A stretch of 64,000 nt of DNA from the NCBI GenBank assembly GCA_021414225.1, contig JAIOOX010000002.1, positions 342,958-406,957 on the forward strand, written 5' to 3'. Made by a program: the position numbers and the translations under genes. The notes under the pieces were generated by a model. That model had not been told where the DNA came from, did no database searches, and was given only the letters and a program-made list of their open reading frames with translations. This document shows positions 4,078-36,985 of the stretch, piece after piece (position 1 is the stretch's first letter; the number at the start of each line of letters is the position of its first letter). This DNA is from Candidatus Vogelbacteria bacterium (GTDB lineage: Bacteria > Patescibacteriota > Minisyncoccia > Phycocordibacterales > XYD1-FULL-46-19).

Positions 4078-4130
4078 TTACCCCTGGTTGGATAGGTTCA
4101 GAACTTTGGATTGGATGAGGGTTAAAAGAG
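4078..4130 (+). repeat. Island boundary repeat copy 1 (core cccctggttggataggttcagaac + ctttggattggatgagggttaaaag tail)
   Basis: One of six direct copies of the same 24-27-nt core; the tail is shared with copy 3. Confidence 0.85.
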
Positions 4131-4142
4131 AAGTTGAAGAAC

Positions 4143-5123: not shown

Positions 5124-5153
5124 ATTATTTTAATTAATGATTTTAATTTTTAA

Positions 5154-5182
5154 TAAAAAAACTGCCCACAGGCAGTTTTTTT
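5154..5182. terminator. Bidirectional hairpin terminator (ctgcc caca ggcag, flanked by A8 and T7)
   Basis: Perfect stem with A-run 5' and T-run 3'. Confidence 0.6.
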
Positions 5183-5443
5183 ATTAATGTCAGAGATAAG
5201 TTTTTACTTACACATTAGAAAATAACCGCCTATTACGCCAAGCAGTCCACCAAAAAGTATTTTTCTTGTATGTATAATTCATATTTTGAGTGTAAATAAT
5301 TGAAATAAAAAAGTCAATCCTATTTAACAAGGTCGGTTACACTTACCCTTTACAACTAAGACTAAATATGATATAGTTAATCAGGAATAAAAACCGACCT
5401 AGCAATAGGTCACACCGGGCTAAGCCCAAGAAAGGACGTTCCC

Positions 5444-6349
5444 ATGTTCCGCAAGCTCTTTGTTATGTGTCTTATCTGTCTATCGGGAGTGGCTCCAGCC
5501 GACGATTGCTTGTTTGGCGGAAGTCACTCGGCCGACACCAACGGCGACCGCCGGATCAACTTGCCAGAAGTGTTACGGGTCATCCAGATCTACAACAGCC
5601 AAGGGAGTGCCTACCACACCAAGGTCGGCACCGAAGACGGTTTTGCTCCTGGCGAATGCGACCAAGGCTATAATTCGATCACGGTGCCGTACGGCGGCTC
5701 GGTCACCCTCAACCCAACAACGGTGGGTGCTACGGTACAGCCCTACAACTGGTACGCAGCCTTGGGTTTTGGCTACTGGATTTCTAGCCAAACCCCGAGT
5801 CTGACACTTACCAATTGTACTCCGGTAAACACTGGAGCGTACTTCTACCGGTCAACCAGTGGTGAGTATTTCTTCGTTAAGGTCACTGGGGTGGCCGACT
5901 TACAGTTGATCGCCTACCCCAACAACGGTCCCTGGCTCGCGGTAGCCTTCAGCCTAAACGGGTTGAGCCTTGGCCAGTTACTGGCTTCCCCACTTCAAGA
6001 TGGCGAAGTGGTAATCGGCCTCAAAGTCATTATTGAGGTTGGTGACAAGTGCTTCACGGATGTGGGGGTATTCAATTACCAACCACTGCTGACCGGGATT
6101 TACGAGGCCAACGTCGTGAGTTTCGACGGCGAAGGGGTGCTTGATTGTTCGGGCCAGCCGGCTACGAACATTGACTTCACTAATCTGCCGACAGGCACAA
6201 CGGTCAGTTTTCAGTTGGCGGTAAAGAGGTCAGATCTGCCAGACACCTATCAGCACTTTGTCGACATCCGGCCCGAGAACACGTTCTTGAGCCTGAACCA
6301 GACACAGGCCTTGGTCTCTACCGGAACCGGTAGCTGGCTGTACAAGTAA
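5444..6349 (+). CDS. Secreted GC-rich protein with N-terminal dockerin/EF-hand-like Ca-binding repeat
   Basis: Signal peptide MFRKLFVMCLICLSGVAPA; DTNGDRRINLPEVLRVIQ matches the dockerin DxNxDGxxN/D pattern; RBS AAAGGA; GC-rich relative to host. Confidence 0.55.
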   Translation: MFRKLFVMCLICLSGVAPADDCLFGGSHSADTNGDRRINLPEVLRVIQIYNSQGSAYHTKVGTEDGFAPGECDQGYNSITVPYGGSVTLNPTTVGATVQPYNWYAALGFGYWISSQTPSLTLTNCTPVNTGAYFYRSTSGEYFFVKVTGVADLQLIAYPNNGPWLAVAFSLNGLSLGQLLASPLQDGEVVIGLKVIIEVGDKCFTDVGVFNYQPLLTGIYEANVVSFDGEGVLDCSGQPATNIDFTNLPTGTTVSFQLAVKRSDLPDTYQHFVDIRPENTFLSLNQTQALVSTGTGSWLYK

Positions 6350-6376
6350 CAGTCAAAATCGCTATAACACACCTTA

Positions 6377-6416
6377 CCCCGCCGCTTCATTCAGAAGTGG
6401 CGGGGTTGAATTTTTT
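6377..6416 (+). terminator. Rho-independent terminator (ccccgccgcttc/gaagtggcgggg + T-run)
   Basis: 12-bp stem (one G-U) then ttgaatttttt, 28 nt after the stop. Confidence 0.65.
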
Positions 6417-6465
6417 AAATATAGATCAATAATAAAAATTATAACTAAGCCTCTAATACAAAAAA

Positions 6466-6492
6466 ATCACCAAAAACTTGGGTGATTTTTTC
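6466..6492. terminator. Bidirectional hairpin (atcacc...ggtgat) between A6 and T6
   Basis: Seen in sequence immediately left of repeat copy 2. Confidence 0.4.
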
Positions 6493-6497
6493 TACTC

Positions 6498-6536
6498 ACT
6501 CCCCTGGTTGGATAGGTTTAGAACAGTGGAGTGGTC
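6498..6536 (+). repeat. Island boundary repeat copy 2 (core + cagtggagtgg tail)
   Basis: tcccctggttggataggtttagaacagtggagtgg; the tail is shared with copies 5 and 6. Confidence 0.85.
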
Positions 6537-6602
6537 AGTAATTAAAAAAATCTAAATAATATATCTTTACATTTACCTAATTTGAATTAATATCTACTAT
6601 TA

Positions 6603-7211
6603 ATGATAACTTCGGACAAAGAACGACAAGCTCCAACTAAAACTTTAGAAGCGGAACCTTCTCATTTAGCCCGCTATCAATTTGCGCTAAAATTTATAAA
6701 AAATGAAGACATTATATTAGATACTCCATGCGGAAGTGGTTACGGTTCAAATTTATTATCCACTAAAGCAAAAATGGTTACGGGAATAGATATTCATCCT
6801 GGAGCAATTCAACACGCTAAAGAGTTTTTTCACAATGATAAAATAGATTTTTTTGTGGCTGATATGCAAAATCTAGAAATTCATTTTCCAGACAGTAAAA
6901 AATTTAATCTAATTGTTAGTTTTGAAGGAATTGAACATATAAAAGACCAAACTAAATTTTTAAGTAGCGCTTCTAAACTTATAAATAAAGATGGGTACTT
7001 AATCATTTCTACCCCTCGAAAACCACATGGAAGTCCATACCACACCGTAGAATTTTCTTTAGAGAGTTTTAGGGATATATTGTCAAAAAGTTTTGTTATA
7101 GAAAAAATGTTTGGTCAGATATATACGGATATATTTGATATGGAAGAAAGAAAAGAAAATCCCGAAGATTATCACAGATTTAATTTTATTGCTCTTTGTA
7201 AAGCAAAGTAA
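6603..7211 (+). CDS. Class I SAM-dependent methyltransferase
   Basis: Motif I LDTPCGSGYGSNLL; 202 aa; AT-rich, unlike the neighbouring cassettes. Confidence 0.65.
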   Translation: MITSDKERQAPTKTLEAEPSHLARYQFALKFIKNEDIILDTPCGSGYGSNLLSTKAKMVTGIDIHPGAIQHAKEFFHNDKIDFFVADMQNLEIHFPDSKKFNLIVSFEGIEHIKDQTKFLSSASKLINKDGYLIISTPRKPHGSPYHTVEFSLESFRDILSKSFVIEKMFGQIYTDIFDMEERKENPEDYHRFNFIALCKAK

Positions 7212-7276
7212 AGTATTGCTCCCCTGGTTGGATAGGTTTAGAACTTTGGATTGAATGAGGGTTAAAAATGAATTAA
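7193..7276 (+). repeat. Island boundary repeat copy 3 (inverted extension ctttgtaaagcaaagtaaagta overlapping the MTase stop, then core, then the copy-1-type tail)
   Basis: Core 7218-7244 identical to the other copies; the extension is in inverted orientation relative to copies 4-6. Confidence 0.8.
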
Positions 7277-7287
7277 CTTGTCTAAAT

Positions 7288-7608
7288 TTAACACTCTACC
7301 CATTGTCCATCTAAAAAATTGACTACGGAAGTTCCTCCAACACAGTCGCCATTTTCATAATAAGCTACCTGGATGGTTGTAACCAAACTGGAAGCTTCTT
7401 GGTACTGACCTTTTCTGGTATACCTATATTCTGTTACTTCTCCATCTGATGCCCCAGGTACTTCAACTTCCCACAGATAAATACCTTGTTCATCTTCAAG
7501 ACAACGAGTAGTTTTATACTCTCCCTCTATATGTCTTCCAAAAACAGCTGATATTTCATCTTGGTTTGGAATGGATTCTAGACTTCCCTGTTCATAGTTT
7601 TCTTTCAT
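7288..7608 (-). CDS. Hypothetical protein (106 aa)
   Basis: ORF only; no recognisable motif. Confidence 0.4.
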   Translation of the reverse strand: MKENYEQGSLESIPNQDEISAVFGRHIEGEYKTTRCLEDEQGIYLWEVEVPGASDGEVTEYRYTRKGQYQEASSLVTTIQVAYYENGDCVGGTSVVNFLDGQWVEC

Positions 7609-7650
7609 ATAAATAATTCTAGCACAAAATAGTTAAAATTTAGTTACTTA

Positions 7651-7697
7651 TAAAAACAAAAGCCGCCCAACGAGTCGGGAGACTTTCGTGGACGGAC
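7651..7697 (-). terminator. Island-family terminator (imperfect GC hairpin + U-run on the minus strand)
   Basis: aaaaacaaaagccgcccaacgagtcgggagactttcgtggacgg; shares the aatttagtt..tataaaaacaaaa..ccgcc architecture with the terminators at 9225, 10214 and 11447. Confidence 0.4.
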
Positions 7698-7708
7698 ATA
7701 CCTCAAAC

Positions 7709-8173
7709 TTAGAAACTGATAACATCTCCGACGATGATTACACCATCGGTCAGAATGCGGGCCCGAAGACCCCCTCTGCCCTGGAAAGCAGTTTCGAATC
7801 CAGGCTTCTTCGCCAAAGCTGAAGGTCGATTGCACGGAGTGCAGAGTTCTACTCCGAGCATCCTGACATCTCCGACCGAGAACTCTTGGCCGACCAGAGT
7901 GTTTAGATCAACCCTTTCGGTTAGAATATTGCGACGGGTATCTTCTGGAGAAAAAGGAATCTCGACTTCCTTGTTTGCTTCTGCAATTGCCTCGACAGCT
8001 ATCAGAGAAACATCACGAAAGGTTTCGCCTACTCTGTGTTTTGAGAAAGCTCCCCTTCCGTCTTTGTACCGATCGCCCTCCAACCCGCGACCCGTAATGG
8101 CATTAACTGCTTGCACAGATACCATTGGTTGCCCTTTATCAGAGGCAACATATATTGCTCTCACATTTGGCAT
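7709..8173 (-). CDS. MOSC-domain protein
   Basis: 154 aa; conserved GDRY, late conserved Cys (CTPCNRP), MOSC beta-barrel length; RBS AAAGGGG; GC-rich. Confidence 0.6.
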   Translation of the reverse strand: MPNVRAIYVASDKGQPMVSVQAVNAITGRGLEGDRYKDGRGAFSKHRVGETFRDVSLIAVEAIAEANKEVEIPFSPEDTRRNILTERVDLNTLVGQEFSVGDVRMLGVELCTPCNRPSALAKKPGFETAFQGRGGLRARILTDGVIIVGDVISF

Positions 8174-8276
8174 GATTTACCCCTTTCGTAGGACTAAGGT
8201 TTCGGTTTCAATTATGTACTACACTAATAGTATTTCTAGCAGAAAATTTAAGAAAAAGAAAACTGTATAATTCTAA

Positions 8277-8340
8277 TACTTTACTTTGCTTTACAAAAGC
8301 TCCCCTGGTTGGATAGGTTTAGAACAATAAACTGGACGAA
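8277..8340 (+). repeat. Island boundary repeat copy 4 (25-nt tRNA-flank extension + core)
   Basis: tactttactttgctttacaaaagctcccctggttggataggtttagaac; the first 25 nt are identical to the sequence abutting the tRNA-Asn 3' end. Confidence 0.85.
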
Positions 8341-8409
8341 GATTGAGGAAGAATTAAGTATTTTGAGTTTGGTAGAAAAAACTCCGTACCCTCAGGGGCG
8401 CGGAGTTGC

Positions 8410-9147
8410 TTAGAGCACATCTTGTTTCTTGTATTTTTGCAAACTTTGTTTAAGTCTTCCTCTCGCTGTTTTAAGTTGCTGACTAACAGCCGATGAGGAT
8501 GATCGGCCATACATAGCAACGATCTGTTCCTGATTCAAACCCTCGAGATAGTACCAAACCAGCAATTGTCGATGAATCGGTTTTAAATCTTCTAAGGCTC
8601 GCCTGACGATATCCCTCCTTTCTTCCCTTAATATTTGGGCTATGGGATCATGCGTCTGATCATCTTTTACAACTTCAGACAGAGGCGACAACTCTTCTTC
8701 GTGTTGTTTTCCGCCTAAGTGTGCATTTAGAGACAGAATTCCGACATGGGATTTCCCTATCTTTTCCTCTACCCGCTCCAGGGTTAGACCCATCGCTTCA
8801 GCCATTTCATTGAGCGTTGGACGCCTCAATAATTTATGGCTGAGCTGAACTTCTACCTTATCCAGATCTTTCCTGTGACTACGCTGAGTGCGCATACTTA
8901 ACACCAAACCTGGTCGTAAACAGTCGTACATAGCCCCCAGAACATGCCGATAGCAAAAAGTTTTGAAAGTAGCCTTCGATTTTTTACTATCAAAACAATC
9001 CGCTGATTCAATCAGGGCTTCAAGCCCAGCTGAATAGAAATCTTCAAACCGCAGATGAAGTGGCAACTTTTCACACACTTTAAGAGCCAGAGACCGCACA
9101 AAGTCGATCTGGCTGAGAATCAGGACTTCTCGCTCGCTCATGGCCAA
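8410..9147 (-). CDS. RNA polymerase sigma factor, sigma-70 family (regions 2 and 4), located inside the cassette array
   Basis: 245 aa; region 2-like FEDFYSAGLEALIESADCFD and region 4 HTH QLLVWYYLEGLNQEQIVAMYGRSSSSAVSQQLKTARGRL. Confidence 0.65.
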   Translation of the reverse strand: MAMSEREVLILSQIDFVRSLALKVCEKLPLHLRFEDFYSAGLEALIESADCFDSKKSKATFKTFCYRHVLGAMYDCLRPGLVLSMRTQRSHRKDLDKVEVQLSHKLLRRPTLNEMAEAMGLTLERVEEKIGKSHVGILSLNAHLGGKQHEEELSPLSEVVKDDQTHDPIAQILREERRDIVRRALEDLKPIHRQLLVWYYLEGLNQEQIVAMYGRSSSSAVSQQLKTARGRLKQSLQKYKKQDVL

Positions 9148-9224
9148 ACCTCCTTTAAGTTAAGGGCCTTTCTATATTTCAGAATAGTCTTAAGGAAGAG
9201 ACATTGTCAAATTTAGTTTAGTAT

Positions 9225-9264
9225 AAAAACAAAAACCGCCCCCCAACGGTTTCCGTGGTGGACG
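9225..9264 (-). terminator. Island-family terminator
   Basis: aaaaacaaaaaccgccccccaacggtttccgtggtggacgg; U-run on the minus strand after the sigma-70 family factor gene 8410..9147? No - it lies downstream of gene 9270..9620. Confidence 0.4.
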
Positions 9265-9269
9265 GCAAA

Positions 9270-9620
9270 TTACTTCTCAAGTTTAGAAAACCCTCCCTGG
9301 CCGAGCAAGATCCAGACCCAGAAATTTGTCAGTCTGCCTGGCGCCATTTCAGAGACATCATCGGTAATCGCCTGGCTACGCTTTTCCAGAGATTCGCGAC
9401 GTGTTGGATAATCATTGGCGAAGATCAGAATTTCCAAAGGTCGCTTCACAACATCAAAACGGCCAATGTCCATGAAGCGAAGTTCAATATCTTCCGGAGT
9501 AAGAGCACCCTCAGGAACCGAAAGATGTTGGGCGATAATGACTGGTAACTTCTGACGGAGAAGCAGCAGTAGTCCATCGCTGATTTTTGACGGATCTCTG
9601 GTAACAAACGCTACGGGCAT
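9270..9620 (-). CDS. Tautomerase/MIF-like superfamily protein (putative)
   Basis: 116 aa starting Met-Pro (MPVAFVTRDP...DGLLLLLRQKLPVIIAQHLSVP), parallel to the MIF/4-OT N-terminus; AGGAGGTG RBS 6 nt upstream; GC-rich. Confidence 0.4.
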   Translation of the reverse strand: MPVAFVTRDPSKISDGLLLLLRQKLPVIIAQHLSVPEGALTPEDIELRFMDIGRFDVVKRPLEILIFANDYPTRRESLEKRSQAITDDVSEMAPGRLTNFWVWILLGQGGFSKLEK

Positions 9621-9657
9621 ATTCCACCTCCTTTCCGAAGGTTGTTGTTCTGAACAT

Positions 9658-9664
9658 ATTACTA
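9658..9664 (-). promoter_or_regulatory. Cassette promoter -10 element TGnTAGTAAT (minus strand), about 30 nt upstream of the 9620 start
   Basis: Same 10-mer as at 10054 and 11753. Confidence 0.4.
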
Positions 9665-9682
9665 ACAGAAATTCAGGTAAAA

Positions 9683-9725
9683 GAAAAACCGCCTCCTCAA
9701 CGCGGGTTTCCTTGTTGAGGGGCGG
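9683..9725 (-). terminator. Island-family terminator; 25-nt identity with the thrS terminator
   Basis: aagaaaaaccgcctcctcaacgcgg is identical to 44543-44567; hairpin ccgcctcctcaac...gttgaggggcgg. Confidence 0.55.
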
Positions 9726-9752
9726 TACGTGTAGCGATTGAATGAAAAAGGT

Positions 9753-10010
9753 TCAGTTCGTGACGGTCGCTGCGACTTCCGCTGGCTCCTGGTCTGTGAT
9801 CTGGAGCTGGACACTCTTGGCAACACGGCACTGCTGATCGATCCCGAACGCAACAGACTTCGCTGTCCAGGCCTCGATAATAGCCTGATGCCCCTTCGGC
9901 ACCTTGGTTGCCTCGATGAGCTGCCCAAGAACTATCATTTCACCAACCGATGAAGCACTGTTGATTGCATCCACGATAGACTCGTGGAAAGGCTTATGAT
10001 CACTCGGCAA
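9753..10010 (-). CDS. Hypothetical protein; start probably TTG at 10010, the longest ORF extends to GTG 10064
   Basis: The TTGACG-N17-TAGTAAT promoter overlaps the 10064 GTG; AAAAGGAGG lies 4-5 nt before an in-frame TTG. Confidence 0.4.
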   Translation of the reverse strand: MPSDHKPFHESIVDAINSASSVGEMIVLGQLIEATKVPKGHQAIIEAWTAKSVAFGIDQQCRVAKSVQLQITDQEPAEVAATVTN

Positions 10011-10053
10011 GGGACCTCCTTTTAGCCATGGTTGTATGGCTTTTTCTGTACTG

Positions 10054-10083
10054 ATTACTAACACAAATTTATGTATTCGTCAA
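10054..10083 (-). promoter_or_regulatory. Sigma-70-type promoter TTGACG-N17-TAGTAAT (minus strand)
   Basis: -35 at 10078-10083, -10 at 10054-10060, spacing exactly 17. Confidence 0.5.
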
Positions 10084-10109
10084 GTATAGCTTACCGGAAC
10101 AAAAAAAAC

Positions 10110-10213
10110 ACTTTACTTTGCTTTACAAAAGCTCCCCTGGTTGGATAGGTTCAGAACAGTGAATTGGAAAGAAGTTGAAAATGAATTAAATAGATTTAGT
10201 TTTGTATAAAAAG
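10110..10213 (+). repeat. Island boundary repeat copy 5 (extension + core + tail with aatagatttagttttgtataaaaa)
   Basis: About 100 nt alignable with copy 6. Confidence 0.85.
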
Positions 10214-10250
10214 AAAAACCGCCCAACCTGAAACTGCATTGGGCAGTCTT
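10214..10250 (-). terminator. Island-family terminator (gcccaa...ttgggc hairpin + U-run)
   Basis: aaaaaccgcccaacctgaaactgcattgggcag. Confidence 0.5.
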
Positions 10251-10281
10251 CTGGCCTGGCGGCACAACATTGAATCCAACT

Positions 10282-11253
10282 TCACTTCGGCAACCTCTGC
10301 TTAACATCATCGGGCATGGCGGCGCGAACTTTTGTCCGTAACGTGGCAGCACCCGTACAGATGTCTCCCAACTCACTGACAAGGCCAACGTTGTTTCCGA
10401 GGTTCCGACCCGCAAGAGCCTTTCTCAGACGTTCAGGAGCAATCTGTTCTGTGAGGAACTTCATGTCCGCAATAATCCGAGCAATACGGGTCGTAACCAG
10501 TTCAATGTCGTCCGATGGCCGACGATCTCGCCCCCGTGCAGCCCTCTTTACTTCTCCGCCGCGGGCCTCGACTTCCGTGTAGGAGCGACGAATGATTTCC
10601 CTGGCTTCATCAGCTCGCTTTCCCTTGATTCTCGGCACCAAGCTGAGTTGTTCCTCTTTAGGGAGACGAGACAACTCAGAGGCCACCGAGATCGGCAAAC
10701 GTTGATCCCGCGGAGTGTTGGGCTGGAATTTCTGCTGGAGTTCGTACGGTAAGTCAAGCAGTTCGAGATATTTCTTGAGCGTTTGTTCGCCGATCCCCAA
10801 CCGTCGCACGATTTCTGGCCACTTCATGTCGTATTCGGTGAGGAACCGTTGTACAACCTTGGCAATTTCCATTTCCGTATGGGGTTCGCGGTGGAAGTTA
10901 GCGGTCGCAGAGGCCAGGTAGTGTTCCTTGGCATCCTTGACAGAGATCACTATTGCTTTGAGCAAAATCTTGACCTCTTTAGCAGACTTCCAACGACGCT
11001 CTCCGTCAACCAGAAAATACTCGATGCCTTTGTTCCTCTTTCCGTAGGCGGCACAGACAATGATGGGATCTTTCTGTCCATCCGTCTTCATTGAATTACC
11101 GAGATTTTGGAGTGCCACAAGGCCGAAGTGTTTCCGAGGTTGATCGGGGAAGTGATCGATCACACTTGGATCAATCTCCCAGATCACACCAACTTGTTTT
11201 GGTTTGGCCATAAGCCAGAACCCTCCCTTGATACTGTTAAGTAGTTGCGTCAA
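10282..11253 (-). CDS. ParB-like nuclease (ParB/Srx N-terminal) domain protein; probable true start ATG 11211
   Basis: Catalytic-region motif YFLVDGERRWKSAKE (ParB GERRxRA box); AAGGGAGGG RBS 9 nt before the 11211 ATG; GC-rich. Confidence 0.6.
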   Translation of the reverse strand: MTQLLNSIKGGFWLMAKPKQVGVIWEIDPSVIDHFPDQPRKHFGLVALQNLGNSMKTDGQKDPIIVCAAYGKRNKGIEYFLVDGERRWKSAKEVKILLKAIVISVKDAKEHYLASATANFHREPHTEMEIAKVVQRFLTEYDMKWPEIVRRLGIGEQTLKKYLELLDLPYELQQKFQPNTPRDQRLPISVASELSRLPKEEQLSLVPRIKGKRADEAREIIRRSYTEVEARGGEVKRAARGRDRRPSDDIELVTTRIARIIADMKFLTEQIAPERLRKALAGRNLGNNVGLVSELGDICTGAATLRTKVRAAMPDDVKQRLPK

Positions 11254-11340
11254 TGAGCTGAGAAATTCGGCTCTGCATTAAAAACTGCCAGATTTATGGA
11301 ATAAAAGCAAGCGCAAAAAATTATCAAATCTAAGTCTGAA

Positions 11341-11446
11341 TACTTTACTTTGCTTTACAAAAGCTCCCCTGGTTGGATAGGTTTAGAACAGTGGACTGGA
11401 GGAAGGTTAAGTTAGATACAGAAAAATTTAGTTTTATATAAAACAA
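11341..11446 (+). repeat. Island boundary repeat copy 6 (extension + core + tail)
   Basis: tactttactttgctttacaaaagctcccctggttggataggtttagaacagtggactgga... Confidence 0.85.
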
Positions 11447-11450
11447 CAAA

Positions 11451-11491
11451 CCCGCCTCGCGACGACGATTCAGGTTCGTTGTCGGGGCGGG
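11451..11491 (-). terminator. Island-family terminator (cccgcctcgcgacg...cgttgtcggggcggg + U-run)
   Basis: The 15-mer acccgcctcgcgacg and the 13-mer ttgtcggggcggg recur at 35622-35662. Confidence 0.6.
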
Positions 11492-11492
11492 A

Positions 11493-11696
11493 TTAAAATA
11501 ACAGGAGACACCAGATGCTTCCAAATATTCCCCATTGTTCGGTACCACATTCAGAACACGTGTGTGCTTCGGTGTTGTTTACACAATTATCACTATGTTC
11601 CCAAATGTTTCCGCACTTTGGACATTTGTGCTTATGAGTCCGAGACGGATCCATTCTTTCGTCACCAGGACTAGCACAATCTCTCACATTCGCCAT
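11493..11696 (-). CDS. Small Zn-ribbon protein (CPKC...CSEC)
   Basis: 67 aa; RBS AAAGGAGGGAGG; first cassette after tRNA-Asn. Confidence 0.5.
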   Translation of the reverse strand: MANVRDCASPGDERMDPSRTHKHKCPKCGNIWEHSDNCVNNTEAHTCSECGTEQWGIFGSIWCLLLF

Positions 11697-11752
11697 TTGA
11701 CCTCCCTCCTTTCGTAGGGTTTTGGTTTCAGTTGAATAGTTTTTCTGATTTA

Positions 11753-11782
11753 ATTACTAACACGGATATAGGTATCAGTCAA
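11753..11782 (-). promoter_or_regulatory. Sigma-70-type promoter TTGACT-N17-TAGTAAT (minus strand)
   Basis: -35 at 11777-11782, -10 at 11753-11759, spacer 17. Confidence 0.5.
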
Positions 11783-11822
11783 TACTGACATAACGCAACA
11801 ACTTTACTTTGCTTTACAAAAG

Positions 11823-11895
11823 CTCCGCGACCAGGGCTCGAACCTGGGACATCCTCGTTAACAGCGAGGCGCTCTACCGACTGAGCTATCGCGGA
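11823..11895 (-). tRNA. tRNA-Asn (anticodon GTT)
   Basis: Perfect 7-bp acceptor stem UCCGCGA/UCGCGGA; D-arm GCTCAGTCGGTAGAGC; anticodon stem-loop CCTCG-CTGTTAA-CGAGG; T-arm CCAGG-TTCGAGC-CCTGG; no encoded CCA. Confidence 0.9.
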
Positions 11896-14123: not shown

Positions 14124-14717
14124 ATGACTCTAGATCAGGACTCTCAACTTATTTTCACCATCCAAACCGGTGGAGTAGCCATCATTCCGACAGATACTAT
14201 TTATGGTTTAGTCGCTAAAGCCGACAATAAATTAACTGTAGAAAAAATTTATCAAATCAAAGGTCGTAACCCTATTAAACCATTTATCGTTTTAATTGCT
14301 GATCTGGAACAACTCAGACTATTTGATATTAATCTCGACGATCCAACCAAAAATCTCTTAAGCCGAGTTTGGCCAGGACCAGTTAGTGTCATCTTGTCCT
14401 GCCCTAATCAAGAACTAAACTACCTCCACCGAGACACTAACACCCTCGCTTTCCGCTGGCCGGCGAAACCAGACTTGCAACAATTTCTAGCTAAGGTAGG
14501 ACCCCTGATCGCACCCAGCGCCAACCCAGAAGGGCAACCACCAGCTCAAACAATAGACCAAGCTAAAAAATATTTTGGTGACCAGGTAGACTATTATTTT
14601 CCTAGCGAAGACACCCTGATTGGAGAACCATCAACCTTAGTTGCAATTGAAAACGGACAGTTTATGATAAAAAGACAAGGTCAAGTTATTATTAGCGACG
14701 TAGAGCGAGAAAAATAG
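14124..14717 (+). CDS. tsaC: L-threonylcarbamoyladenylate synthase (TsaC/YrdC/Sua5 domain)
   Basis: YrdC-fold motif IPTDTIYGLVAKA; 197 aa. Confidence 0.75.
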   Translation: MTLDQDSQLIFTIQTGGVAIIPTDTIYGLVAKADNKLTVEKIYQIKGRNPIKPFIVLIADLEQLRLFDINLDDPTKNLLSRVWPGPVSVILSCPNQELNYLHRDTNTLAFRWPAKPDLQQFLAKVGPLIAPSANPEGQPPAQTIDQAKKYFGDQVDYYFPSEDTLIGEPSTLVAIENGQFMIKRQGQVIISDVEREK

Positions 14718-14794
14718 AAAAGCACTCTTTTTTATTTCCAAGCCGAGGAGACTAAGAAAAGGTTTAACACCTTTTATTACCCAACTATAATCTT
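14690..14794 (+). promoter_or_regulatory. Conserved about-105-nt leader, copy A (overlaps the last 9 codons of tsaC)
   Basis: Alignable along its length with 42695-42803, upstream of thrS. Confidence 0.6.
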
Positions 14795-27791: not shown

Positions 27792-28523
27792 TCACTCTAC
27801 CACTTCACGACCACGACAAAGATGACCATAGTCCCGAGCACCCCACAGCTCTATCAGTAAACTGCTTTGGGAAGTCTTCTTTTTCTCACACCATTCAGCT
27901 GAATAGAACATGGAGTAGTCACTGTCCTCTCTGTGGTCTCTGTGGTATGAACCTGAACAAAGTGTTTTGGTTTTAACATCGAGATGTTGCCCTGTCTCCG
28001 AAAAATATACTAGTTCGTAGACAAGACGCTCCCGCAAAGTCATTCCGTTAACACCTCTTTCTTTTAATTCTTTAATTGGAAGACCTGCCAACAAGGGGTC
28101 AGCTTCGATACTATCACGAACCCAAACTCCATAAGTTTCCTCCGCTGTACGATTATTCTTCGCCACCGGCGGAAGCGGGCGTTCATTATCGGCGCTAATG
28201 ATAGTGACGCTGAACATTTGTCGCAATATCACGATGAGATTTTCTTCCAACAGGCCTCCTGGCAACACGAGAAGCCGCTCGAAACCCGACTTCCTTTCTG
28301 GAACAATCACAGAAGAAGGTTTAATCTTCACTCCAAAATCAGCATACACCGAACAAACCCGGTTGAGCTGAGAATCAGTATCCATTGGGTAGACCCATGG
28401 ATCTTCCCGCCTGAGAAACCGCCTGGCTTGTAATGGGGTGATAGCCGCAGTATTCAACTTGTTCATGAAATCAAGACCGAGGCCGAAGAGGTTCGCTCTT
28501 GGGCTGCCGAGCATGTTTGACAT
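27792..28523 (-). CDS. Hypothetical protein (243 aa), GC-rich insert between the KH gene and trmD where rimM is normally found
   Basis: No recognisable motif; compositionally distinct from the neighbours. Confidence 0.45.
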   Translation of the reverse strand: MSNMLGSPRANLFGLGLDFMNKLNTAAITPLQARRFLRREDPWVYPMDTDSQLNRVCSVYADFGVKIKPSSVIVPERKSGFERLLVLPGGLLEENLIVILRQMFSVTIISADNERPLPPVAKNNRTAEETYGVWVRDSIEADPLLAGLPIKELKERGVNGMTLRERLVYELVYFSETGQHLDVKTKTLCSGSYHRDHREDSDYSMFYSAEWCEKKKTSQSSLLIELWGARDYGHLCRGREVVE

Positions 28524-28682
28524 GGTCAGCCTTCCTTTCTTTTATCTTTTCGAGGTGCCACAGCAGTAGATTAGCGAAATGCCAAGTACCCTGTTCTAAT
28601 TATTATTATAGCATATAACCAGTAAAAATGCAAGGCCAAGCACTCACAAGCCAAGTGAGCCTAATTGTTTTGCAAATCAACA

Positions 28683-28716
28683 AAAAAACACCCTTATGTA
28701 AGGTGTTTTTTTGAAA
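28683..28716. terminator. Bidirectional hairpin acacc ttatgtaa ggtgt flanked by A7 and T7
   Basis: Seen in sequence. Confidence 0.55.
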
Positions 28717-28735
28717 CTGAGTTCCAGTAGAGCGA

Positions 28736-28841
28736 ACTATTCCATTTTAGGAGACTTCGCAAGATCGACGGATCGAGACTTGAGGAATTTTCTAGCAAGA
28801 AAATATCCGTGCTCCTAAGATGGAGATAGTGAACGTTTTTT
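28736..28841 (+). ncRNA. Structured element copy A (about 95 nt, 18-bp closing stem, conserved core, then GTGAACG + T6)
   Basis: Core gagRCTTCGCAAGA...CGAGACTTGAGGAATTTTC.AGCA.GAAAATATCCGT.CTCC shared with 36189-36291; the G-U wobble in the closing stem is valid only for a + strand RNA. Confidence 0.5.
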
Positions 28842-29163
28842 AAAATTTCAAATCCTCCATCGCTTGATCCACAGATCGAGAAGCTGACATTGGAGCGGGA
28901 GCCCGAGTACTACCTTCTGGTTCGTTTATTTTTAGGTTTACGCGAGCATTATTTTTCATTCCCACCACTCGGAGTAAAGTACGGATGGCTTTAGCAGTAT
29001 TGCCTTGGCGACCGATAATTTTACCCATATCTTCCGGATGAACATCAAGACTAATCAATACTCCCATTTCATCTACCTTGCGACCAACCTTAACCTCTTC
29101 TGGATGATCGACTAGGGCCTTAACAAGCATTTCTAAGAATTCCTGATCTTTGTGAGCGTCCAT
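28840..29163 (-). CDS. KH-domain RNA-binding protein (YlqC/KhpA-like)
   Basis: GKIIGRQGNTAKAIRTLL KH motif; conserved position downstream of rpsP. Confidence 0.7.
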   Translation of the reverse strand: MDAHKDQEFLEMLVKALVDHPEEVKVGRKVDEMGVLISLDVHPEDMGKIIGRQGNTAKAIRTLLRVVGMKNNARVNLKINEPEGSTRAPAPMSASRSVDQAMEDLKF

Positions 29164-29779: not shown

Positions 29780-29966
29780 GACCACGAGATAGTAACATAA
29801 AAGGCCGGCTAAAGGCAAGTAGAAACACTTCTAAACGCCGTCAAACGGAAGGTGGGCACTAAGGAAGGGGGTTTGCCGAGTGGCGACGAGGCAACTTCAG
29901 GATTTTTTAAGCTTCAAAAAATCTGTACCCTTCTCTAGTGCCCACCTGAAGTGCTATACTCGCACC

Positions 29967-31966: not shown

Positions 31967-32329
31967 CTAGATAGTAACCACTGGTGTGAACAGGTAGAGT
32001 CCGCCGCTGGCGCTCCACACATAATCATCCCAGAAGTCATAAGCAACACCACTGTTGGTATCAACAGCCGGCCGTCCTTCATAGTTGAACAGGAAGACCT
32101 TTTTGCCAGCAGGTAATCCTCTCTGTTCCCGCCAGAAGAGATCGATCAAGGACCCAGATAGACAGAGCTTCTCCAAGCTAATCCCCACCGAACCAAAGAG
32201 GTCCAGAAAACTGCCATCGCCCATTGCTCGATAAACAGCGAAGCCTGAGGATATCGCCAGCCCGCTTTCTGGTGGGACCAGGGTGACACAATCTGGACGA
32301 AGAATCATCCCCTCTTTTATCTCAAACAC
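31967..32329 (-). CDS. Hypothetical protein (120 aa), GC-rich
   Basis: Overlaps the upstream gene by 13 nt (operon). Confidence 0.4.
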   Translation of the reverse strand: MFEIKEGMILRPDCVTLVPPESGLAISSGFAVYRAMGDGSFLDLFGSVGISLEKLCLSGSLIDLFWREQRGLPAGKKVFLFNYEGRPAVDTNSGVAYDFWDDYVWSASGGLYLFTPVVTI

Positions 32330-33237
32330 GGGAACGCCTCCCTTTTTCCACCAAATAGATGGGACAGGAGATCTCCGCCCGCCTGGCTGGTGAATTGAAG
32401 CTGAGTCAGTGAAAGATCCAGCTTGGCTGGCAAGCTCTGCCGCTCTAAGTCTACAGCAGTCAAAGATCTCCCGTTCGCTGGCTGTCCTTCAGGCAAGCGG
32501 AAGAGGACCTTCCAACAAATCTCCTCCGAATGACAGCAGTAGAGCAGTTCCTCCTTCACAGACATTTCAGGCTCCACACTAGAGTAACAGACCCTTGTCT
32601 TTCCGCTGATGCCGCGATCTTTACTCCAATGTTCAAGTACATAGAAGTGATGTTCTCCGTACCAGTTAGTAACGACCCCCTCCGTTGCCACCAGCACCGG
32701 TTGGTGATAAGTGGTCTGATAGCCACAGATTCCCAGAATCGGGATGATCGTGTAGGGGCACTCCAGTAGCCCCATTTCCAAACCCCGCGAATAGACATCC
32801 TGCAGAGACATCGACTTGTCGTCCTTGTCAAAACCAAGGTCTTCAAGAGATACCTCGACAAAAGTCATATCAAAGACATCGCCTTGTGGCTGAAGTAGCA
32901 ACTGGGCAATAATCCCTTCCGCCCCCCGAGCTTGGTGACTGTGCGAATACAAGCGATGGTGACCACCACCATCTCCCCGTCTAAAGCGAAGAGGTATGTG
33001 CCATAAGTCGCTGAAACAGAGGTTTAGCCCCATCTCTTTGACCAAATCGGCCAACTGTTCATAGTCCTCGGGACTGGGAATTGGGTACCTGACCCGAAAG
33101 ACCGGCCCAGATATCAGTCCGGGCAACTTACTATTCGGCCCAGAAAGAAGTCCAGCTGGATCACCGGGTGGGACAACGCCCACTCTCTGTACATTGTTTT
33201 TCACGATTAAGAAGCTCCTTTTTAAAGTCCACGTCAT
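32317..33237 (-). CDS. Hypothetical protein (306 aa), GC-rich
   Basis: No recognisable motif; compositional outlier. Confidence 0.45.
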   Translation of the reverse strand: MTWTLKRSFLIVKNNVQRVGVVPPGDPAGLLSGPNSKLPGLISGPVFRVRYPIPSPEDYEQLADLVKEMGLNLCFSDLWHIPLRFRRGDGGGHHRLYSHSHQARGAEGIIAQLLLQPQGDVFDMTFVEVSLEDLGFDKDDKSMSLQDVYSRGLEMGLLECPYTIIPILGICGYQTTYHQPVLVATEGVVTNWYGEHHFYVLEHWSKDRGISGKTRVCYSSVEPEMSVKEELLYCCHSEEICWKVLFRLPEGQPANGRSLTAVDLERQSLPAKLDLSLTQLQFTSQAGGDLLSHLFGGKREAFPCLR

Positions 33238-33340: not shown

Positions 33341-35581
33341 TTACTTAGCAAATCCAGCTGCCTCATCAAATCTAATTGATAGAAGTTTAGATACCCCATC
33401 AGAACCCATGGTCACACCATAAAGGATACTGGCTCGAGACATTGTTTCCCTATTGTGAGTGATGACGATTAGTTGAGAGTGTTTGGCGAGAGCGGTCACC
33501 ATTTCACCGTATTTGCGAGAGTTGGCTTCATCAAGGGCCGCGTCAGTTTCATCAAGAATCAAAAATGGTGGCGGATTAACTTGCGACATCGCAAAGAGTA
33601 AAGCGATAGAAGTCAGAGCGCGCTCACCACCAGAGAGCATCTGGAGACCTTTTATTTTCTTCCGTGGTAAGTTCACATTAATATCAATCCCCGTTTCCAC
33701 TTCTTTATCGCCTTCAGTTATATCACCCTCCATCTCTTCTCCACTATCATCAGAGAAGACGCTACGCTTGCGCTTCACTTCTTGAACTAACTCTAGCGAA
33801 GCCGATCCCCCGTCGAACATCAGCACAAAGAAGTTATTAAATTCTTTGTTAATTTTTCCAATACCTTCAGCAAATTCGTGTGACAGCTTTTCGCGCAATT
33901 CTTTCATCACATTCTTCAAACTTTCAGAGGCGGTCAACAAATCTTCCAATTCTTTGGCTAAATATTCATCACGCTCAGTCACCTCTTTGTATTCAGTCAG
34001 TACATCAGTCCCTTCCATACCCATATCTTCCAAGCGAATCTTAATGCGCTCGATCGTGCGACGACGGTCTTCTTGTTTATCGCGAGGTTCATTATCTGGC
34101 ACAAAAGAAGCCATAAAGCGATCGTACTCCAGCACTTCCCGATCCACTAAAGTCACCGCCTCATCTAGCTCTCGTTTGAAGTTTTCTTGAAGAACCGCCA
34201 AAGTCCTAGATTCCGCTTCAGTGGCATCAAGAATAGAAGATAACTCCATTTTCTTAGAGCGTAATTCAAACACTTCTCGCTCGGCGCCGCGAGTCGCTTC
34301 GCGCTCTTTTTCTATCGCTTGTTTAAGTTCTAACTGACGACCCAAGTTTTTCTCTTCGTCGGCAATCAATTGAGCCAGTTCCTGATCAAGTTCTACTTTC
34401 TGATTTTTCAGTGAAGCTAAAACTTCTTCTTTATTATCCTCTCTCTTAATCTGGTGTTTAAATTTATCAACAAAATTTCTCAGTAAACTTTTGACTTCAA
34501 TCAAGGCCGAGCGTAAGACTGAGATATTATCAAGCTGAGCCCGACTATCAATATGCGCTTCAATATTAGCCAAGACTGATTTCAACTCTGACATCGGCAC
34601 CGAGGCATCTTCTTCGGTTTTTATTTCCGCCAATTGTTCCGTCTTTATTTCAATCAAACCTTCTAGACGACCAAGTTGCCGAGCAATATCGTCTTTCTTG
34701 GTGCGAATATCGCGAAGGAGGCGCTCCAGCACCGCCAATTCTCCACTGGCCGCTGATTCACTAATATCGCGCTTAAGTGCCTGTTCCGCATCAGCTAAAC
34801 GAGCCAAAACAGCTGTTAGTTCCGCTTGCGGTCCAGACTTTTTGTGAGTCAAGCTATTGGCGGTTTCAATTAAATAAACTGATTCGCGTTTTAAATATTC
34901 AAAATATAATTTCTTGAGTTCCCGACGCATTTCGTCAGCCTTCTCCACTTTCTCGACCTGCTTTTTCAAAAACCGAATATGCGGCGCAATCTCGCGACGG
35001 AGTGATTCTATTTCTTTAACATTTTGCTCGGTCTTATCTAATTTCTTTTCACTTTCGGTAATTTTCCATTGATACACTTTCAAACCTAAAGCCTCTTCAA
35101 TCATTTCTTGCCGATCTTTAATACTGGAATTTAAAATTCGATCAGCTTCGCCTTGAGAAATAATATGATGACCGGTCGAACCAAGCGAGACTGAACCAAG
35201 TAGCTCAATAATATCTTTCAATCGCACAGCTGAACCATTGATCGCGTACTCGTTGGAACCATCGCGATGGACAGTACGGGTGATAACTACTTCATCATAA
35301 TCAATATTGAAACGCTTCGATGTATTATCAAAAGCGACCGAGACTGAGGCTCGATTGAGCCGACCACTGGAACTAGTGCCGTTGAAAATTAAGTCTTCTC
35401 CACGTTTACCACGCAGAGATTTGAGAGACTGCTCACCGAGCACCCAACGAAAGGCTTCGGCCACGTTTGATTTACCAGAGCCATTAGGACCGACAATAGA
35501 TGTAACCGGCGCGTCAAAAGACAAGGTCGTTTTTTTACCAAAAGACTTAAAACCATTTATTTCTAGCCTGGTGAGACGCAT
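33341..35581 (-). CDS. smc: SMC-like chromosome segregation ATPase, short form (about 746 aa from ATG 35581)
   Basis: N-terminal RLTRLEINGFKSF...GPNGSGKSN Walker A, long coiled coil, C-terminal LSGGERALTSIALLFAM signature and Walker B ILDETDAALD. Confidence 0.65.
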   Translation of the reverse strand: MRLTRLEINGFKSFGKKTTLSFDAPVTSIVGPNGSGKSNVAEAFRWVLGEQSLKSLRGKRGEDLIFNGTSSSGRLNRASVSVAFDNTSKRFNIDYDEVVITRTVHRDGSNEYAINGSAVRLKDIIELLGSVSLGSTGHHIISQGEADRILNSSIKDRQEMIEEALGLKVYQWKITESEKKLDKTEQNVKEIESLRREIAPHIRFLKKQVEKVEKADEMRRELKKLYFEYLKRESVYLIETANSLTHKKSGPQAELTAVLARLADAEQALKRDISESAASGELAVLERLLRDIRTKKDDIARQLGRLEGLIEIKTEQLAEIKTEEDASVPMSELKSVLANIEAHIDSRAQLDNISVLRSALIEVKSLLRNFVDKFKHQIKREDNKEEVLASLKNQKVELDQELAQLIADEEKNLGRQLELKQAIEKEREATRGAEREVFELRSKKMELSSILDATEAESRTLAVLQENFKRELDEAVTLVDREVLEYDRFMASFVPDNEPRDKQEDRRRTIERIKIRLEDMGMEGTDVLTEYKEVTERDEYLAKELEDLLTASESLKNVMKELREKLSHEFAEGIGKINKEFNNFFVLMFDGGSASLELVQEVKRKRSVFSDDSGEEMEGDITEGDKEVETGIDINVNLPRKKIKGLQMLSGGERALTSIALLFAMSQVNPPPFLILDETDAALDEANSRKYGEMVTALAKHSQLIVITHNRETMSRASILYGVTMGSDGVSKLLSIRFDEAAGFAK

Positions 35582-35621
35582 GGGTAAATAATACCATAAG
35601 CTTATCTTCCCTAGAAACAAT

Positions 35622-35662
35622 GAACCCGCCTCGCGACGTGTTCATTGTCGGGGCGGGTGTGA
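35622..35662 (-). terminator. Island-family terminator (cccgcctcgcgacg...ttgtcggggcggg)
   Basis: Near-identical arms to 11451-11491. Confidence 0.6.
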
Positions 35663-35670
35663 AATCTGAT

Positions 35671-35976
35671 TTAGTCTTGGTGGACAGGTACGTCCATGAC
35701 TTCGCCAAAACGCGAAATGGCACCTTTGTAATCAATCGTGGCCAAATCCGGGAACAATTCCAGAAGAACCGGCCGCAACTGCTCACGACAGACAAACGCT
35801 GTACCACTCCACGAATCACAACCAGCTGCCACTTCGGATGGCAAAGCGGTCTTCGCCAAATCCATCAACTCTTGGGTTGTGACGGCCACAGTCCCAGGCA
35901 AGGTCTTGGCCGAGCCTACCAACCAAAGTACTCTGGTTGGATGTTTTTTTGTGACCCAACTGGCTACAGAAGACAT
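35671..35976 (-). CDS. Hypothetical protein (101 aa), GC-rich solitary cassette between rnc and smc
   Basis: AAGGAG RBS 9 nt upstream; consensus promoter further upstream; island-type terminator downstream. Confidence 0.5.
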   Translation of the reverse strand: MSSVASWVTKKHPTRVLWLVGSAKTLPGTVAVTTQELMDLAKTALPSEVAAGCDSWSGTAFVCREQLRPVLLELFPDLATIDYKGAISRFGEVMDVPVHQD

Positions 35977-36065
35977 TTTTTCTACTCCTTGTTAGAATTT
36001 AGACTGACCATAAACTGCCACAAAGCAGACCATAAGGCCAACTAAACCCATTTATTCTGTAATTA

Positions 36066-36094
36066 ATTATACACCCAAATAGTCTTTCTGTCAA
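36066..36094 (-). promoter_or_regulatory. Consensus sigma-70 promoter TTGACA-N17-TATAAT (minus strand)
   Basis: -35 at 36089-36094, -10 at 36066-36071, exact consensus in both hexamers, 17-nt spacer. Confidence 0.6.
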
Positions 36095-36188
36095 GGAATT
36101 GGGTTTTTGAAGTAAGCGAAACAAGTTCTCAGACAAAGGCTCGCACAACAGTCGACTAGCCGGTTTTTGCATTTTTGGGCCAAGTGAA

Positions 36189-36291
36189 CCCCTGCTTTTT
36201 GGGAGGCTTCGCAAGACGGGTAGTCGAGACTTGAGGAATTTTTCAGCAGAAAAATATCCGTACTCCCAAAAAGCAGGGGTGAACGATTTTT
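36189..36291 (+). ncRNA. Structured element copy B (perfect 17-bp closing stem cccctgctttttgggag/ctcccaaaaagcagggg)
   Basis: Same core and same GTGAACG + T-run as copy A; compensatory 1-nt insertions in the internal GGAATTTT(T)C/GAAAA(A)TATCC stem. Confidence 0.5.
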
Positions 36292-36985
36292 AATCCCACC
36301 CCTTCTCCTTCAACCCCTTATCTGCCGCATCCTGCTCCGCTTCTTGTTTAGAGTGACCTTCACCAGTCGTCACCTGCTCTTCACCAATAAACAAACCGAC
36401 GGTAAATTTTTTATTATGATCCGGACCAACTTCAGCTAAGACTTGGTAAGCAGGGGTCACACTAAAGTGCTCTTGGGCTTTTTCTTGAAAATAACTTTTT
36501 GAGTCTTGCCATAATTCCCCTTCGACAATTTTATCGGTTTTATTAAAAAGATTATCAGCAATAAATTTGGCTGCCACCTCATAACCTTGATCCAAATAGA
36601 TAGCCCCCACCACCGATTCAAAAGTATTGGCTAAAATATATTGACGAGCTCGGCCGGTATCTTTGGCTTCTCCCCTAGATAGAAGCAAATAATCATTCAA
36701 ACCAAGTTCCGTAGCCACGTCAGATAAAGAGTTGGTATTAACCAAAGCAGCTCGCAAAGCGGTCAACTCTCCTTCTGGTTTAGTCGAATAGCGTTTATAT
36801 AAAAAGTCAGTTACCACCAATTCCAACACCGCATCACCCAAAAATTCTAGCCGTTCGTTATGAGGCAAAGTCACATCTCGATGCTCATTAAGATAAGAAC
36901 GATGAATAAAGGCTTGTTTGAGCAAGTCTTTGTCATTAAAAGTCAGGCCGATACGTTTAGCAAATTGATTGGGGTCTAAAGACAT
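36290..36985 (-). CDS. rnc: Ribonuclease III
   Basis: ERLEFLGDAVL signature; C-terminal dsRBD. Confidence 0.9.
   Translation of the reverse strand: MSLDPNQFAKRIGLTFNDKDLLKQAFIHRSYLNEHRDVTLPHNERLEFLGDAVLELVVTDFLYKRYSTKPEGELTALRAALVNTNSLSDVATELGLNDYLLLSRGEAKDTGRARQYILANTFESVVGAIYLDQGYEVAAKFIADNLFNKTDKIVEGELWQDSKSYFQEKAQEHFSVTPAYQVLAEVGPDHNKKFTVGLFIGEEQVTTGEGHSKQEAEQDAADKGLKEKGWD

Follow-up and report, generated by a model that had tools for sequence, protein, structure and literature searches.

The structured sequence that adjoins the 3' end of rnc belongs to a family of dispersed, multi-copy, strand-specifically structured intergenic repeats in genomes of some Parcubacteria, tiny bacteria of groundwater. 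Taking the evidence as a whole, we lean towards viewing it as a REP/REPIN-like dispersed repeat whose copy at rnc is independent of the replaceable gene cassette beside it. The window (the whole 64-kb stretch of DNA that was analysed) carries four copies, here named A to D, all on the + strand (Table 1). The original prediction had recognised the sequence at rnc as a further copy of an element at 28736, and the alignment of copy B with 28731-28846 (copy A), in which all stem differences are compensatory, agrees with this; it had also called copy B the second one, a count that falls short of the four copies present.

Copies of the structured element

Copy B, which obtained a covariance-model score of 99.6 bits (E 3e-26), consists of an 18-bp stem (P1) with a tandem G.A closure and a three-way junction as its cap. 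These parts as a whole are followed by GAACGAUUUUU, which extends to the rnc stop codon, and the 3' arm of P1 is followed by GAACGATTTTT, which extends to the TAA of the minus-strand rnc. On the + strand, both copies fold far better than shuffled sequences, copy A with a z-score of -4.8 and copy B with one of -5.5. The cores of these two copies are ~83% identical; their arms are entirely different and still complementary, and the P1 arms are wholly different among all four copies. The 19-mer TCGAGACTTGAGGAATTTT, common to copies A and B, occurs exactly twice in the window as compared to 0.02 expected occurrences. The stem arms were also considered as guides against other sequences; with up to four mismatches allowed, the window contains no further match to them.

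A three-block core pattern yielded 40 further metagenome loci, all with the same spacing and flanking stem. The covariance model R1, built from an RNAalifold alignment of 32 distinct copies, identified 53 significant copies (E ≤1e-5) in the window and the loci collected to that point; it recovered all input copies together with others, some of them diverged, and seven additional copies were detected in rnc-relative loci. Copy counts are biased, because most loci were collected with a pattern derived from the element itself. Protein names assign the window to a MAG of Candidatus Vogelbacteria, and the element-bearing metagenome loci carry typical Parcubacteria housekeeping genes. Applied to species-representative genomes, the pattern CTTCGCAAGA...GACTTGAGGAAT, which was taken from two window copies only and is too strict to say anything on taxonomic spread, gave one chance match (L001).

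Scans with Rfam 15 at gathering thresholds detected only tRNAs and 16S rRNA in the window and six loci, and no family for the element; at an E-value cut-off, copy B and twelve other loci gave scattered chance matches, none of which recurred on the element. Viral contigs, GenBank phages and PLSDB plasmids returned chance matches or nothing, and a literature search found no description of the structured element.

Table 1. Features of the window discussed in the text, with positions counted from its first nucleotide.
Feature	Position	Strand	Remarks
Copy B	36184-36289	+	
Copy B, tandem G.A closure	36184-36187 with 36281-36284	+	GTGA with GAAC
Copy B, P1 5' arm	36188-36205	+	18 nt
Copy B, junction core	36206-36262	+	57 nt
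Copy B, junction strands			J1/2 GCUUCG; J3/1 GUA
Copy B, P2			CAAG/CUUG, carrying hairpin P2a and bulge CGAGA
Copy B, P3			AGCA loop and bulged A
Copy B, P1 3' arm	36263-36280	+	
rnc (RNase III)	36290-36985	-	stop codon adjoins the 3' side of copy B
rnc stop codon	36290-36292	-	TAA
Spacer, element to promoter	36100-36183	-	aligns with L049 at ~80-90%, falling towards the -35 box
Predicted promoter TTGACA-N17-TATAAT	36066-36094	-	TTGACA 36094-36089, TATAAT 36071-36066
Shine-Dalgarno sequence AAGGAG	35985-35990	-	8 nt upstream of the ATG of the 101-aa ORF
101-aa ORFan	35671-35976	-	51.6% GC as compared to 41.9% for the window
Hairpin terminator, then UUUCU	35617-35659	-	folding z -3.2
smc	33341-35581	-	likely start codon ATG 35581-35579
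Copy A	28732-28839	+	directly after the khpA stop codon; 100.1 bits
Canonical bidirectional intrinsic terminator	28681-28713	-	between copy A and the promoter of the 243-aa ORFan
Second ORFan cassette	27792-28633	-	beside copy A; TTGCAT-N17-TATAAT 28633-28605
243-aa ORFan	27792-28523	-	in the cassette beside copy A
Copy C, diverged	29847-29950	+	between divergent rpsP and rnr; 29.8 bits, E 3e-6
Copy D, diverged	60385-60487	+	occupies the rpe-tkt intergenic space; 42.4 bits, E 5e-10

Fold, covariation and folding strand

RNAalifold folded the 32 distinct copies into a three-way junction. In alignment A3 of R1 (48 distinct rows), standard pairs fill 95.2% of the cells as compared to 71.7% in shuffles, and 32 of the 35 base pairs change on both sides among 45-48 distinct copies. 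The covariation score was 0.571 versus ≤0.119 for controls in which the partners were slid by 1-3 columns. Compensatory changes in diverged copies reach even those parts that were fixed by the search pattern, and the base of P3, GGA/UCC, is replaced in such copies by GAA/UUC, GAG/CUC, GAC/GUC or ACA/UGU. The purines R24 and R81, which flank the junction, switch between A.G and G.A without exception (24 versus 20 copies), and neither A.A nor G.G occurs. The A of J2/3 and the bulged A in P3 are invariant, the loop of P3 is AGCA in 33 of 45 copies, and the junction holds ~30 near-invariant nucleotides in a core of ~57 nt. The main stem measures 18-20 bp in most copies; its sequence differs between copies and always pairs. 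It ends in a symmetric purine loop (GA/GA in the window copies, GNA/GNA elsewhere) closed by a C-G pair, and beyond this pair lies an outer stem whose length varies.

Apparent flanking direct repeats (CGGAG...CGGAG, GTGAAC...GTGAAC) result from this symmetric G.A internal loop with its closing pairs. We rejected a role of CUUCG in J1/2 as a guide to flanking CGRAG pentamers, after the manner of IS608 with its guide and cleavage sites: the pentamers are free at their middle base (G, A, C or U), the flanks are located ~20 bp from the junction, and the symmetric GNA/GNA or GA/GA loop plus closing pairs explains the repeats better. A pseudoknot between UUCG and the CGAG bulge was also rejected, as its connecting loops are too short and diverged copies gave no support for it.

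At consensus pairs, G.U outnumbers A.C by 49 to 6, which identifies the + strand, antisense to rnc, as the folding one. The summed folding energy is -2327 kcal/mol in the + orientation as compared to -2162 kcal/mol in the reverse one. Copies antisense to NYN, ndk and khpA keep UU in one arm and drift among AA, AG, GA and GG in the other, and the conserved unpaired nucleotides (CGAGA, GACG, AGCA) are purine-rich on the window + strand. The folding strand is the window + strand, antisense to rnc and khpA, whatever the direction in which the neighbours are transcribed.

Copies located immediately 3' of stop codons, and the long stable hairpin that forms from either strand of the element, would suit a plain intrinsic terminator or a 3' stabilising hairpin of rnc and khpA. 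We consider this highly improbable, because the selected strand is antisense to both genes, and selection on the + strand would not be predicted by a plain 3'-UTR or terminator function. On the - strand the element is not followed by a U-tract; on the + strand the U-run lies 5 nt past a 2-bp closing stem, and a terminator scan did not call the element. Copies also occur inside operons and between divergent promoters, and an invariant three-way junction is unnecessary for a terminator. Furthermore, a canonical terminator lies 15 nt beyond copy A; since it is separate from this copy and follows it, the element does not itself terminate khpA transcription. The same terminator is kept in the sister strain L049, which is without copy A.

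The rnc-smc intergenic region and its gene cassette

The backbone order in the relatives is dnaE, rnhB, rpmF, nusB, rnc, smc, rnr, rpsP, khpA, trmD, rpoB. A promoter-ORF unit had been proposed to be inserted between rnc and smc, and the synteny comparison supports this. In L057, L058 and L060 the two genes are adjacent or overlapping, and in L054 and L056 only the element lies between them; in L055 the element directly follows rnc and no cassette was seen, the sequences of L054 and L056 extending further, to smc. The order rnc, element, smc without an ORF was found in an 81% relative. L049 and L050 carry rnc, the element and, after it, a different ~105-aa ORF that has a TATAAT box of its own, an 81-aa ORF is found between rnc and smc in L059, and three other small genes are found there in L028. 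One and the same gene in this position in all relatives, the finding that would have spoken against an insertion, was not encountered.

By whole-gene comparison, the genes common to L049 and the window are 92-99% identical (about 96%). Both sequences have the element and ~80 nt beyond it in common, followed by ~455 nt, comprising promoter and ORF, that are unalignable. From the 5' foot of the terminator hairpin to the smc ATG, 87 nt (window 35573-35659, L049:9303-9389) are again 100% identical. The right junction of the cassette is sharp and located at CACCCGCC, the 5' foot of this hairpin, and the left edge of the variable segment lies ~80-90 nt from the element. The gene-order comparison shows the unit of predicted promoter, Shine-Dalgarno sequence and 101-aa ORFan to be a strain-specific, replaceable and inserted cassette. 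It likewise shows copy B as an older resident that predates this cassette and is independent of it. The element occurs after rnc (L054, L055, L056) and after khpA (L019, L028, L043) without an ORFan; it is therefore resident and outside the inserted unit, and the link between element and cassette that the original prediction implied finds no support. Judged from these alignments, element and terminator form a conserved frame, with the element plus ~80 nt as left flank and the hairpin terminator plus smc leader as invariant right flank. The terminator had been assigned to the ORF as one of an island family; the hairpin and its UUUCU do exist, but they do not travel with the ORF, given that the 87-nt block is identical in L049 despite an unrelated ORF.

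Upstream of the 101-aa ORF, which is GC-rich as originally described, the promoter-like sequence called textbook deserves this term: it is the only 12/12 match to the sigma-70 consensus in the window (both strands, 128 kb) as compared to ~0.02 expected, next to three other matches of 11/12, and AAGGAG and an ATG follow downstream of this predicted promoter. As regards the original statement that most host genes lack obvious -35/-10 or SD signals, a light check brought up only these 11/12 matches. The 101-aa ORF matched no Pfam family and no homologue among 5.8 billion clustered proteins, and an exhaustive phmmer search against 1.84 billion representatives found no homologue either; its AlphaFold model has a mean pLDDT of 53, which is too low to base a fold search on. 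The cassette promoter is predicted to drive its own ORFan and to have no functional tie to the element.

The cassette beside copy A is absent from L049, L019, L028 and L043, and its 243-aa ORF also matched no Pfam family and no homologue among 5.8 billion clustered proteins. In L019, L028 and L043 the order is khpA, element, trmD without this ORFan. Between smc and rnr (31967-33237), the window contains two more homologue-less ORFs of 306 and 120 aa with ~51% GC; L049 has an unrelated 85-aa ORF at this place and L058 has nothing. The khpA|trmD and smc|rnr slots behave like the rnc-smc slot. Cassette ORFs have 47-52% GC as compared to 40-43% for their neighbours and are mutually unrelated. No convincing direct or inverted repeats bound the ORFan cassettes; one 11-nt A/T-rich inverted repeat was seen around the 243-aa ORFan.

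Since copies A and B both adjoin ORFan cassettes and the rnc-smc space is a hotspot with different genes in different strains, the element might be an attachment or recombination site for cassette exchange, comparable to integron attC. Like attC, it is a strand-specific folded hairpin at ORF 3' ends with an internal loop, extrahelical (bulged) bases and sometimes a branched tip, which loosely recalls folded attC bottom strands, and in both cases it is the strand complementary to the coding strand of the adjacent gene that folds. Such a role is largely refuted and in our judgement very improbable. Elements without a cassette occur at rnc (L054, L056), khpA (L019, L028, L043), rpe-tkt, rpsP-rnr, murD, pyk and 16S rRNA, and cassettes occur without an element, e.g. 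at smc|rnr 31967-33237 or as the rnc-smc genes of L028. The left edge of the variable segment is ~80-90 nt away from the element, and its sharp right junction lies at another hairpin. Unlike attC, the element follows housekeeping genes (rnc, khpA, ndk) and comes without an integrase and without RYYYAAC/GTTRRRY core sites, its flanks being GTGAAC/GAACG or CGGAG/GGAGC; its conserved part is apical, whereas in attC the variable part is apical, and the cassettes have their own promoters, in contrast to the promoterless integron cassettes next to intI.

Two other arrangements of small genes were observed. In L028, a distant relative, a duplication of 33 nt of the rnc 3' end (L028:10296-10330 and 10718-10752) brackets a 94-aa gene between rnc and smc, which looks like the footprint of a site-specific insertion at the rnc 3' end. 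Window 4078-11826 contains six direct repeats of ~72-114 nt (GCTCCCCTGGTTGGATAGGTTTAGAAC...) spaced 0.7-2.4 kb apart, the last of which overlaps the 3' end of a tRNA-Asn gene (11822-11895, - strand); the cassette ends have a common A-rich stretch followed by a CCGCC...GGCGG hairpin. This region resembles a series of small cassettes that have been integrated in tandem at a tRNA gene.

Dispersal, gain and loss of copies

The density of the element reaches four copies in 14 kb in L048, three of which have a private deletion in common, as compared to four in the 64 kb of the window; five further loci hold two copies each, two of these five overlapping contigs already counted. Copies are found antisense within tandem gene pairs, between convergent genes, sense after genes and between divergent promoters, with a ratio of antisense to sense orientation relative to genes of roughly 2 to 1. 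They adjoin housekeeping genes that are unrelated to one another (rnc, khpA, rpe, ndk, NYN, yidC, comM, murD, pyk, 16S rRNA).

Copies also differ between closely related strains. L049 keeps copy B at 105 of 107 positions, lacks copy A and has copy C half-deleted by a deletion of 94 nt; a diverged copy downstream of dnaE is present in L049 only, the window having a different sequence there. No copy was found in 73.6 kb of syntenic sequence of four relatives with 69-75% Rnc/RNase III identity, and more distant genomes (50-60% protein identity) carry a copy after khpA. Copies persist, still pairing, at orthologous sites, namely at rnc down to 81% identity and at khpA in several species.

A short hairpin of L049, TTTTAGGAAAGCCTAAA, may be the empty site or the deletion scar of copy A, although either would need three separate indels. 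The khpA gene (28840-29163) shows 92% nucleotide identity to L049 and 77% at third positions, as compared to 98-99% for rnhB and nusB. This suggests a possible recombination import around the segment of khpA, copy A and the 243-aa ORFan.

Multiple copies per genome and the lack of a consistent orientation towards neighbouring genes characterise the "mobile/repeat sequence candidates" of the Breaker laboratory (PMC11109978). For these two reasons, a mobile or repeat candidate is the best available classification of the element. A selfish or domesticated repeat of the REP/REPIN type, with recognition of the junction in trans, appears plausible to us, if not quite probable. Copies would arise by a copying process within genomes, each of them then being retained or lost individually. 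A trans-acting protein would recognise the invariant junction in the single-stranded + strand, either RNA or a single-stranded DNA intermediate, and the two-turn stem would serve as a spacer or ruler of fixed length down to the G.A loop. The host may in addition employ copies as modules for RNA stability, processing or insulation. The neighbours in the sampled loci, which are genome fragments, include no candidate partner gene such as a transposase, RAYT or reverse transcriptase, and neither a target-site duplication nor a clean empty site was recovered. Against a repeat speaks that the terminal stems lack conservation from copy to copy, whereas transposases normally recognise conserved ends. 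Moreover, persistence and pairing at orthologous sites are accounted for by a host function at least as well as by a purely selfish element. No conserved + strand promoter was found upstream of the copies, and several loci offer no space for one owing to a terminator or coding start; the main point left without an explanation is therefore how the + strand becomes single-stranded where it is antisense to operons. The window + strand is C-rich and presumed to be the lagging strand. IS200/IS605 elements prefer the lagging-strand template, and the strand preference of the element in the window is the opposite.

The element could instead be a functional RNA module encoded by the host, either cis-acting or in the form of a small RNA. 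Its + strand would be transcribed and folded, with a conserved factor binding to the junction. Its usefulness in many intergenic spaces, as an insulator against antisense transcription, as a signal for processing or stability, or as a protein sponge, would have led to its multiplication. We regard this as rather unlikely; it overlaps with a REP/REPIN-like repeat. The very strong covariation, together with ~30 nucleotides that are invariant across genomes with only 50-60% identical proteins, argues for such an RNA, and so do the purine-rich loops and bulges and the A.G to G.A switch, which resemble RNA tertiary motifs, the nearly constant stem length and the U-run that follows copies A and B on the + strand. 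Resident orthologous copies keep pairing on the + strand through changes from U-A to U.G, two copies flank the 16S rRNA, and the element lies ~9 nt upstream of a strong promoter in L020, L023 and L029. These points have to be weighed against the missing + strand promoter, the mixed orientation, the lack of a common function of the adjacent genes and the separate terminator of khpA, as well as against copies that are lost or half-deleted between near-identical strains and absent from the four syntenic relatives.

In L048 (L048:10478-12803), the 16S rRNA gene is situated between two element copies in inverted orientation, and a TTGACT-N17-TATACT promoter follows 9 nt after the copy upstream of it. 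A second two-copy structured repeat, TTAGCGACGTAGAGCGAG...CCGAGCCGAGGA, was noted at window 14686-14774 and 42695-42783; at the 42.7-kb site, L049 has a diverged three-way-junction element instead (L049:2173-2275). A T-box-like leader and terminator upstream of thrS (42490-42700) scored 38 bits as compared to the Rfam gathering score of 93 and is ~97% identical to L049 in an alignment judged by eye. The tRNA gene at 39111-39189 has an irregular anticodon loop, to which ARAGORN assigns no anticodon (Rfam tRNA 51 bits); L049 has a syntenic tRNA gene.

Comparison with known repeats

REP/REPIN sequences are similar to the element in being multi-copy and intergenic, often just after stop codons or inside operons and in either orientation, in having strand-specific hairpins with compensatory changes, and in their patchy occurrence across lineages with genome-specific subfamilies. 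A REP is a palindrome of 20-40 nt with a conserved 5' GTAG and conserved stems and is mobilised by RAYT transposases, whereas the element is 100-150 nt long, has a free stem sequence and a conserved three-way junction core, and lacks GTAG. Its many extragenic copies in both orientations are thus as expected for REP/REPIN, and the short GTAG palindrome with a conserved stem is absent.

The Correia/NEMIS repeats of Neisseria, pneumococcal BOX, Bacillus bcr1 and ERIC are MITE-like repeats that are transcribed into mRNA and have conserved terminal inverted repeats and target duplications; their hairpins can influence mRNA processing. The element resembles them in its length, its dispersed intergenic location and its long RNA hairpin; unlike them, it has an invariant junction common to distant genomes and covaries far more strongly. 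Its arms covary and are unconserved, and conserved terminal inverted repeats with a target-site duplication are not found. From the candidates of the Breaker laboratory, which it resembles in copy number per genome and inconsistent orientation (PMC11109978), it differs in that no transposase, integrase or nuclease gene is associated with it in the sampled loci.

The element is new; its kind, structured dispersed intergenic repeats, is already known, and the evidence for its specific fold is unusually strong. A more far-reaching idea, which we consider unlikely, is that it represents a Parcubacteria-specific class of structured nucleic acids in which the junction, two helical turns above the G.A loop, is a catalytic or protein-loading core. 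The system to which this core belongs may be a self-cleaving or self-mobilising ribozyme, or a new machine for mobility or defence that has the RNA or single-stranded DNA as its handle. As a comparison, HEARO repeats proved to be guide RNAs of IscB.

Implications

The genomes of Parcubacteria and of other candidate-phyla bacteria are very small and densely packed, and hardly any of their non-coding elements have been characterised. The family described here, which has covariation of textbook quality and an invariant junction and is absent from Rfam, fills an appreciable part of what little intergenic space there is. This suggests that a partner protein and a mechanism are still to be found. 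The alignment and the covariance model of the element are ready for genome-wide surveys and biochemical tests. In addition, near-identical strains carry unrelated homologue-less genes in the same intergenic slots, each with a strong predicted promoter. These slot-swapped ORFans point to an unexplained route of gene turnover in Parcubacteria-type organisms.
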